Shown here piece after piece: positions 12,001 to 15,000 of a stretch of 64,000 nucleotides of DNA; the stretch's first letter is position 1; every line of letters begins with the position of its first letter. Source of the DNA: Escherichia coli. Lineage in GTDB: Bacteria > Pseudomonadota > Gammaproteobacteria > Enterobacterales > Enterobacteriaceae. Position numbers: made by a program. The stretch is from NCBI RefSeq assembly GCF_003334385.1, contig NZ_QOWN01000001.1; one strand, 5' to 3'.

Positions 12001-15000
12001 CAGGCATTCAGCGCTGGCATCCAGATGAATGAGACTGACGCCATAACGTCGGGTAAGTGTGACAACCAGACAACGGAACGTTTTTGACAGGCCCAGGCGC
12101 TTAAGCCGCAGAACCGGGTATGACCACGCATCGGTACGTAACAGATAGCCGCTGCCTGTAAAATGAATCCATTCTGATTCGCCGTCGTCATTAGTCTGGT
12201 GTGACAGCGAGTACAGCCAGGCGTTGTCCGTTTCCGTGATATGTGCGGTGCTGCAACGTATGCAGGTAAGGGTTGTTAACGGTGGTGGTGTACTGGTTGC
12301 GTGTTGGTCGGATTTATCGACCACGCGGAGTAAATAACCGTTTTCAGAGACCTTGTTAATCAGTTCACTGAGATTAACACCATCGACGTCAACGACAATG
12401 CGCCCCATGTTCAGTGCCTGCACGTTAACGCTGTCGGCTTCCAGCGTCAGGGCCAGTTTCATTGTTTTGCCTCCGGATGCTTGCCCTGGGTAATGTTATT
12501 TACCATTCTGTAATTGTTCCGGGTCATCAGGCCGGTTGCCCTGCGAGCCCGGAGAATATCAATGCTGTTGATTAACTGCGACGGGGCTCCTGCGCTGAAT
12601 CCCGGCTGGTCGGTACGTACCAGCGCGTATTTTTCAACGAGAAAGTTCACCGCGTCACACAGTGAAATCCCTGCCTCAATATGCTGCTCAATCACACGTT
12701 CATCAGCGAACGGTGTGTCATTCAGCGTGAGGCCATAGTGCTGGTCCAGCAGTCGGGTGAGCAGTGTCTGCCAGATGGTGACGGGAGACGGGCAGCCCGA
12801 TGCCTCCCGTACGTGAGTGTCGGGTAATGTATTCATCTTAAGTTCTCTGTAACAGGTGGTGATAAAGGGGAGATATCCGGGGTTATACGGTGATTGCGGG
12901 CGCTGCCGGTGTCGGATAAACAGCCAGATAAACGTAACCACAACTGCCAAGGGTATCGGCTTCGCAGGTCAGCCCTTTCGCATACAGTGTGATGGTATGC
13001 TGATGGCGGGGATTCAGTTCACCGCTGGTGAGCATGAGTTCCAGTTGTTTCATCAGCAGCGGAAAGGCCTGGTCCAGGTGGTATGCATCCGCGTCGCTGA
13101 ACCGGCCTCTGATACCGGCACGGTCGGCAAGGTAATGCAACCGGTTACCCTCCTGCACCAGACGTGCCCCGAAACAGGGCGTCACGGTGCAGGGCAGCCC
13201 CCACCAGGGGCGGTCGTGATTGTCGTCGGGATGCGTTGTCCCGGGCAGTGTGTCTGACACGATAAAGTCCTCACAGAAATCAGTTAAGAATGGTTCGATG
13301 GTGGCGATAATTCGGCTCATCAGAATGCCCTTCCTGACTCAGTTCAGGGTGACGCTCATCAGCCGGACATACGGGCCAAAACTGTCTTTACGGCGTTCTG
13401 CAAACACAGCCAGCACACCGGGAATATCCTGCACTTCACGACCGGTATACGCTTCAGTGCTGCCGTGCCAGCGGTATTTGCCGGTACAGAACGGAAAAAG
13501 ACGGGATGCCGGATGTTGTTGGTGAATACGCATGGCTTCACCACGGGTGATGATTTTCATAGTGTGATACCTCTGAAGACAGAAGATAAAAGCGAAAACT
13601 GGTATGATGTGGTTGTAACGGTGACGGGTTAAAGCAGACCGTGTTCCGCAAAGGAGAAAACCTGGCTGCCACCGACTATCAGATGGTCCGGCACCCGGAT
13701 ATCCACCAGGCCCAGTGCCTGTACCAGACGTTCCGTGATAAGGCGGTCTGCCTTGCTGGGTGTGACTTCACCGGACGGGTGATTGTGTGCCAGCACCACA
13801 GCAGCGGCATTGTGATACAGGGCGCGTTTAATCACTTCCCGGGGATGGACTTCCGTGCGGTTGATGGTGCCGGTGAAGAGGGTTTCACCGGCAATCAGCT
13901 TATTCTGGTTGTTCAGATACAGCACCCGGAATTCTTCACGCTCCAGTCCCGCCATGTTCAGAATCAGCCATTCCCGTGCCGCACGGGTGGAGGTGAAGGC
14001 CACACCGGGTTCATGAAGATGGCGGTCCAGGGTTTTCAGGGCCCGCTGAATGAGGCTGCGCTCGCCGGGCGTCATCTCTCCTGGCAGAAAGGAAAGCTGT
14101 TGCATTGTTCCAGCCCCTTTCAGTCAATGATGCGCATAATGGCGTTGCATTCCGGATGCTGCAGGGCGTAGTCCCGCAGACGGTAATAATGAACCGTCAT
14201 GGCATAACACTCCGTGCGACAGGCATGATGACTGTACGTCATCAGACAGGCAGCAATGCCGGCGGCTTCCGGGCTCATTTCAGCACGGTTACCGTTCATG
14301 GCATTGAACAGTACCCATGTCTCGTCATCATCGTCATCCGGTTCGGGTGCCATAAATGCCCCGCCGTTGTTCAGGGTGTACAGATTCCAGATACCACCGC
14401 AGTAGTCTTCGCAAAGATGGTCCATCCAGCCGAAGACACGGGGTTCCAGGGTCACCCACTGTGGAATGAGGCCAAAATGCTGCGGCCAGAAGCTGATGCG
14501 CTGTTCATGAGGAACGAGAGTGGCAACCAGTTGAGGCTGGTCATTCTCTGAAGCTGTGACTACGGAAGCAGAAAGTGTACAGGTGTTCTGAGAAACAGTT
14601 TTCATGAGTGAAATCCTTATAAAACAAATAAATGCAGGGTTTTCGGGGAGCAGGGGGTAGGGGAGCCTGAATCACGTCTTCAGGGATGTGCTGCATCAGC
14701 GCATGTTCTCCAGCAGCGTTTCTGTCATTACCCACAATGCGCGATTGAGCTTAATGTCCGTGTCGATGCTGTGAATGGCACGGGTGTGGATACGTTTTCC
14801 TTTAGCGCTGCGACCGGAAATCCCGCCTTTCAGCATATTCTCCTGGATGGTCTGATATGCGCTCCACAGGTCCTTACCGTAATCCTCCCGGCGTCGCGGC
14901 GTCAGAATGTCGGCGGTGGTGACGGGCTGATGTTCGTCACCATAACGGTAAGTCAGTGCCGCCTGTGCCAGCGCCTGGCGTGCCGGTGGCGGCAGAATCA

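Follow-up and report, generated by a model that had tools for sequence, protein, structure and literature searches.

A 64,000-nt stretch of the Escherichia coli contig NZ_QOWN01000001.1 (assembly GCF_003334385.1; hereafter the window, to which all coordinates refer) carries a cbeA antitoxin gene followed by a cbtA toxin gene. We read the locus as an intact, ordinary CP4-44-type cbeA-cbtA type IV toxin-antitoxin pair, lying in a conserved same-strand block of genes at the integrase-distal end of an island, and would put the probability of this reading at about 0.88. Every gene of the module is encoded on the minus strand, and the antitoxin gene stands directly upstream of the toxin gene. When the concatenated products of the module genes were scanned against Pfam, seven of the eight were matched over their full length (E-values from 5e-60 to 2e-20), the DUF957 product being the one without a match. 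CbeA and CbtA are 100% identical to WP_015953067.1 and WP_001094436.1, respectively, and PGAP places the start of the former at the same GTG codon. CbeA also matches the solved YeeU structures over its whole length (PDB 2INW, 7e-84; 2H28, 2e-78). In the RadC-like protein the HNHPSGx7D motif is intact and the score for NCBIfam TIGR00608 exceeds the cutoff. From DUF932 to DUF957, in gene order, the spacers measure 90, 14, 68, 78, 46, -4 and 11 nt (Table 1).

The full-length Pfam matches and the gene order of K-12 uphold the CbtA/CbeA identity given in the initial annotation, which had been made from the sequence alone. That annotation placed the pair at 12459-14605, in a setting of RadC, antirestriction and DUF932 genes. 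The genes within this span are real and all three neighbours are present, but the span omits the DUF932 gene (14696-15514) and the 162-aa open reading frame (11974-12462) that it names, and no mention was made of DUF987, whose gene separates RadC from cbeA.

It also described the module as canonical for CP4-44/CP4-57-type elements, and the gene order does match that of CP4-44, CP4-57 and CP4-6 in K-12. The CP4-44 genes yeeS-yeeT-cbeA-cbtA-yeeW have the same order and strand as those of the window, with protein identities of 99% (RadC, YeeS), 97% (DUF987, YeeT), about 90% (CbeA) and 84% (CbtA), the same GTG context at cbeA and the same ATGA junction between cbtA and yeeW. There are also differences. 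The yeeW gene is full length in the window (162 aa), whereas it is shortened in CP4-44 (195 nt); the cbeA-cbtA spacer is 46 nt in the window and 88 nt in CP4-44; CbeA ends in PAAPAITV rather than EMKN; and toxin residue 15 is Cys rather than Arg. Upstream, CP4-44 has flu and yeeR in place of the DUF932 and antirestriction genes of the window, and it has no integrase.

In CP4-57 (lfgABCDE, or yfjX-yfjY-ypjJ-yfjZ-ypjF) and CP4-6 (yafX-ykfG-ykfH-yafW-ykfI), the order antirestriction-RadC-DUF987-antitoxin-toxin is that of the window, DUF932 and a GTPase again lie further upstream, and the genes are likewise near the att site of a P4-type integrase element at a tRNA or tmRNA gene. However, their toxins and antitoxins are just 53-57% identical to those of the window, their antitoxins are shorter (105 aa) and begin with ATG, antitoxin and toxin genes are 20 nt apart, and no DUF5983 gene follows the toxin. 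The Shigella flexneri YeeU homologue of PDB 2INW, an entry that offers a structure only, has the same length as the window CbeA (125 aa) and a PAAPA(I/T)TV C-terminus; its full-length identity is about 95%, with five substitutions.

Start codon of the antitoxin gene

The initial annotation drew attention to a GTG-initiated antitoxin. The GTG start is real: it is annotated in RefSeq and is preceded by a Shine-Dalgarno sequence, GAGGA, which we read at 13268-13272 on the minus strand, 7 nt upstream of the codon. Its presentation as something particular to this copy does not hold up, because K-12 and all the E. coli alleles that we sampled have the same GTG. The sample (n=8) consisted of the closest relative and seven alleles taken evenly down the similarity ranking, spanning 89-100% identity. 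K-12 cbeA (b2004) has its annotated start at this GTG, with the context unchanged, TTTATCGTGTCAGACACA, which can be written as TTTATC-GTG-TCAGACACA. The GTG, the GAGGA motif and the TTTATC spacer are common to K-12 and 8/8 sampled alleles: for the closest relative RefSeq annotates a 378-nt cbeA from this GTG, and both the codon and its Shine-Dalgarno sequence recur in each of the seven further alleles (89-95% identity). Both solved YeeU structures (2H28 from K-12, 2INW from Shigella flexneri) begin at MSDTLPG. The GTG start is the norm of the gene lineage and no peculiarity of the window copy, and antitoxin translation would begin at this codon, behind GAGGA.

The window allele does contain a longer in-frame cbeA reading frame, which starts with an ATG at 13320 and would give a protein of 145 aa instead of the 125-aa GTG product. 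No stop codon interrupts the frame from 13320 onward, and the ATG there has AGGAAGG 8 nt ahead of it. In K-12 and in 6/8 sampled alleles, however, a stop codon or a frame change shuts the upstream frame after 8 codons, so the extension from 13320 is not conserved coding sequence. MSDT is the N-terminus from which both the Pfam model and the solved structures begin, and PGAP annotates the GTG. We rejected the 145-aa antitoxin, which is very improbable.

To look at start-codon usage in the whole family, we scanned a single genome from each bacterial species. This gave 80 loci, mostly from Enterobacterales, and for each gene we took as the start the candidate with the best Shine-Dalgarno sequence, which was usually the sole one that the open frame contained. 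The start was non-ATG in 22 of the 76 antitoxin genes for which a start could be inferred (20 TTG and 2 GTG), or 23/77 with K-12 cbeA added. The same procedure applied to the same loci gave 0/74 for CbtA, 1/61 for DUF932, 2/55 for the antirestriction gene, 2/68 for RadC, 4/60 for DUF987, 0/20 for DUF957 and 4/32 for DUF5983. The share of non-ATG starts is thus about 30% for the antitoxin against about 3% for these seven neighbouring gene families, a difference of roughly tenfold. On a neighbour-joining tree of the 77 antitoxins at least 7 changes between ATG and non-ATG are required. The non-ATG starts did not arise in a single inherited event, but the figure comes from related sequences and should not be read as a formal test. 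TTG antitoxin starts behind AGGA or AGGAG appear to occur outside Escherichia at loci L010-L012, L014-L016, L018, L020, L024, L026-L030, L034, L044, L055, L059, L062 and L067, in each case near locus position 5000.

Expression of the block and integrity of its genes

The TGA of cbtA and the ATG of DUF5983 share the letters ATGA, the ATG being preceded by GGAGG at a distance of 7 nt. The 4-nt overlap between the 162-aa reading frame and the toxin stop, which had been pointed out in the initial annotation, is therefore present, and it is also conserved: where DUF5983 follows the toxin in other genera, 29/34 loci keep an NTGA overlap, and the proteins are 51-64% identical. DUF957 homologues follow DUF5983 in 20 loci. 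The adjacency of CbtA and DUF5983 has already been noticed in earlier work (PMC10790755; 2026 bioRxiv preprint). The toxin would be translated from its ATG with a poor Shine-Dalgarno sequence, and DUF5983 may be translationally coupled to it through the ATGA overlap.

Two strong terminator-like hairpins flank the block, one upstream of DUF932 and one after DUF957 (Table 1). The latter probably marks the end of a transcription unit, and together they suggest that the eight genes from DUF932 to DUF957 form one unit, apart from the GTPase-to-DUF905 genes upstream and the DUF4942 gene downstream. The homologous block of CP4-57 has been reported as a single operon, lfgABCDE (PMC10846083). The spacer between DUF987 and cbeA folds no better than shuffled sequences (z-score +0.8) and so gives no sign of a structured leader, and an Rfam search found no RNA family within the module.

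Three observations weigh against our reading of the locus as an intact and ordinary pair in a conserved block. The first concerns expression: neither within the block nor directly upstream of it did the promoter scan find a sigma-70-like promoter on the minus strand. It returned fewer sites than shuffled controls, and none was usefully placed. The second concerns the DUF4942 gene, in which GAA has become TAA (E203*) compared with the intact 281-aa gene of a near-identical island (NZ_CM142674.1). This nonsense mutation means some decay at the module's island end; the copy is probably either a recent pseudogene or the product of a sequencing error. The third is residue 15 of the toxin, which is Cys in the window allele and Arg in K-12 CbtA, and which thereby equals the R15C state that weakened the interaction with MreB in K-12.

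The K-12 toxins allow this last point to be weighed. CbtA blocks division and elongation via FtsZ and MreB, and YpjF and YkfI act likewise; the two contacts are separable, the one with FtsZ being lost in F65S and the one with MreB weakened in R15C (PMC5624674). F65 is present in the window allele, and Phe occupies 70/72 residues aligned at that column. Cys15 is shared with YpjF, YkfI and all eight sampled E. coli alleles, and across the toxin family Cys and Arg are found at this residue 31 and 32 times, respectively. YpjF and YkfI, which naturally have Cys at residue 15, still block elongation (PMC5624674). On this comparison, Cys15 would provide no argument for an inactive toxin.

By analogy with the K-12 homologues, the window CbtA would bind FtsZ and MreB and so block cell division and elongation. 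CbeA has been reported to bind MreB and FtsZ directly, the toxin and antitoxin of a type IV system having no mutual contact (PMC5371832), and the window CbeA may counter CbtA in the same way, by acting on the same cytoskeletal polymers and not by binding the toxin.

With regard to lesions elsewhere, the DUF932 gene, intact in the window, is frameshifted in the closest full-island relative (L092, 44297-45116). Separate copies of the block bear separate single-gene lesions.

The selC island and the distribution of the block

An exact repeat of the selC 3' end at 10679-10702 places the island at approximately 10.68-60.05 kb, between setC and selC, which gives a size of 49 kb. The module sits just inside the integrase-distal att repeat, the end of the block being at 10835; a distal island-end position has been described for the K-12 CP4 elements (PMC5371832). 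A near-identical island in a bloodstream isolate (NZ_CM142674.1) is annotated with tia, the papGII P-fimbrial operon, pgtABCP and ireA, together with a PAPS-reductase/IbrB pair, a nuclease and insertion sequences, and ends with the same GTPase-to-DUF4942 block. Judging from this likeness, we identify the window island as a virulence island of extraintestinal pathogenic E. coli (papGII, ireA, tia, pgt). Homologues of the GTPase-to-DUF905 genes (15604-18435) also lie upstream of the module in many loci of other species. Elsewhere inside the island, Rfam detected an ALIL pseudoknot at 27205-27321 on the plus strand (121 bits), which is the programmed-frameshift element of an IS3-family transposase.

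Table 1. Genes and other features of the module and of its island, listed by position in the window.
Feature	Position	Strand	Details
Distal att repeat	10679-10702		24-nt copy of selC 3' end; exact repeat TGGCGGAAGATCACAGGAGTCGAA, second copy 60028-60051
DUF4942 gene	10835-11680	-	In-frame TAA at 11072-11074
Terminator-like hairpin after DUF957	11711-11737	-	10 bp and T-run; -18.9 kcal/mol, z-score -5.0
DUF957 gene	11765-11962	-	65 aa; 11 nt past DUF5983; RefSeq annotation of near-identical locus
DUF5983 (full-length YeeW) gene	11974-12462	-	162 aa; Pfam DUF5983_N 3e-30, DUF5983 C-terminal domain 2e-20
cbtA (yeeV) toxin	12459-12836	-	125 aa, ATG start, TGA stop; Pfam CbtA_toxin (PF06755) 5e-60, model 1-112/112
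cbeA (yeeU) antitoxin	12883-13260	-	125 aa, GTG start; Pfam CbeA_antitoxin (PF06154) 6e-53, model 1-100/101
DUF987 (YeeT-like) gene	13339-13560	-	73 aa; Pfam DUF987 5e-37
RadC-like JAB domain gene (YeeS-like)	13629-14105	-	158 aa; Pfam RadC 1e-42
Antirestriction gene (ArdB/KlcA-type)	14120-14605	-	161 aa; Pfam Antirestrict 1e-35; PHROG anti-restriction protein 5e-62
DUF932 gene	14696-15514	-	272 aa; Pfam DUF932 2e-49, full length
Terminator-like hairpin upstream of DUF932	15554-15583	-	13 bp, GC-rich, and T-run; -27.2 kcal/mol, z-score -6.8
DUF905 gene	15604-15837	-	Upstream, conserved island end; RefSeq annotation of near-identical loci
Hypothetical gene	15843-16520	-	Upstream, conserved island end; RefSeq annotation of near-identical loci
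Helix-turn-helix regulator	16668-17348	-	Upstream, conserved island end; RefSeq annotation of near-identical loci
GTPase	17551-18435	-	Upstream, conserved island end; RefSeq annotation of near-identical loci
Tyrosine integrase	58544-59728		Adjoins selC; 394 aa, intact; 100% identical to RefSeq tyrosine recombinase
tRNA-Sec (selC)	60028-60122	-	Integration site; ARAGORN and Rfam

The 3.7-kb block is common in E. coli. Among 5426 complete genomes, 5004 contain it; the copy number has a median of 3 and reaches 17. At 99% identity or above, it is matched by 233 complete E. coli genome records, and genomes related to the window locus hold 3-7 copies. The 80 loci of the species scan include Citrobacter, Klebsiella, Enterobacter, Serratia, Yersinia, Pectobacterium, Photorhabdus and Erwinia. 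The order DUF932-antirestriction-RadC-DUF987-antitoxin-toxin on a single strand is kept in nearly all of them, about 70 being from Enterobacterales genera other than Escherichia, and in about 40% the toxin is succeeded by DUF5983, DUF957 and DUF4942. With NCBIfam, the RadC protein was the only one to score above a cutoff; PHROGs gave family matches, with functions limited to antirestriction and "DNA repair".

We found the toxin in only one of 50,697 phage records (a 3.2-kb fragment) and in 66 of 72,556 plasmid records, several of them as large as a chromosome (mislabelled chromosomes). A true phage or plasmid origin was rejected on these counts. Given this near-absence from phages and rarity on plasmids, "cryptic prophage" is a historical label, and the module belongs to chromosomal integrative islands.

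Several loci in the scan stand apart. Six look like assembly contamination and not true hosts. Four of these (L005, L007 and L009, Collinsella metagenome-assembled genome and Arthrobacter; L006, Lachnospiraceae metagenome-assembled genome) have an E. coli-like cbeA-cbtA, 92-95% identical, on very short contigs in genomes that bear an Actinobacteria or Firmicutes label. The other two (L053 and L070, Chryseobacterium sp. 18061) have the module on longer contigs, and the BLAST identities and junction context of L053 are those of L052 (Citrobacter sp. 18056), from the same study. At L088 an extra gene (1307-1951) separates DUF987 from the antitoxin; its annotation reads "antitoxin of toxin-antitoxin stability system". 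Unusually long antitoxin-toxin spacers (294-1099 nt) are present at L010, L012, L014, L029, L030, L034, L056 and L065.

Possible roles of the module

The suggestion in the initial annotation that the module may contribute to island stabilisation amounts to an addiction mechanism: a stable CbtA would outlast a labile CbeA after loss of the island and kill or arrest island-free cells, so that the selC island is maintained. Toxin-antitoxin systems stabilise other integrative elements (PMC12548467), and here an intact and conserved pair is found just within the distal att repeat of an island with an intact integrase. Yet in K-12 the operon is reportedly autoregulated by neither toxin nor antitoxin, the antitoxin genes can be deleted, and any one of YafW, YfjZ and CbeA suffices to neutralise each of the three toxins (PMC5371832). 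The copy numbers given above also speak against addiction, since with several paralogous copies per genome the loss of a single island would probably be buffered, and we found no evidence for a labile CbeA. Stabilisation would thus be plausible for a pair on an excisable island and somewhat disfavoured by the published data, and we consider it unlikely.

Another way to view the eight genes is as a block that acts on entry into a new cell, where it would counter restriction and modulate the host, CbeA-type proteins serving as transferable protectants and not as one partner of an addiction pair. An ArdB/KlcA-type antirestriction gene within the same eight-gene unit, a gene order that is fixed across Enterobacterales, and the recovery of CbeA, YfjZ, YagB and the antirestriction protein YfjX among proteins translocated via an F-type conjugation machine (PMC11288057) are consistent with such a role. 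What makes it improbable in our view is that we saw no transfer origin or conjugation genes beside the block, that the toxin family is rare on plasmids, and that our literature search returned no paper tying DUF932 to plasmid leading regions. PADLOC, moreover, gave no match for any of ten proteins, and the block is therefore not a catalogued defence system.

The operon could instead have been domesticated by the host and kept since its RadC-like protease, cell-shape toxin and other products aid survival under oxidative or antibiotic stress. The CP4-57 protein LfgB (YfjY) has been reported to degrade MqsA and to protect against H2O2, acid and heat (PMC10846083), and K-12 became less resistant to oxidative stress once its three toxin genes were deleted (PMC5371832). 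These data, however, come from K-12 paralogues that are 57-77% identical to the window proteins, the effects are small, and the authors of the LfgB protease assay themselves qualify it (PMC10846083), which leaves stress survival a rather doubtful explanation for the upkeep of the block.

We return, then, to an ordinary CP4-44-type pair, whose members, neighbours, location and GTG start are already in the reference annotation and the literature. The main value of the analysis is negative: the features that had been flagged in the window are the norm of the family, and the idea of island stabilisation goes without specific support from the sequence.

It is tempting to speculate that the CbeA family is under dosage control at the level of translation and that DUF5983 is a third functional partner of the toxin, a proposal that we offer tentatively and hold to be unlikely as a whole. 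If it were true, the weak start codon would keep the ratio of antitoxin to toxin low or make it depend on conditions, and DUF5983 would be made only upon translation of the toxin. Without making this locus special, the frequent non-ATG starts of the antitoxin and the conserved overlap of toxin and DUF5983 could merit a small study of toxin and antitoxin levels.

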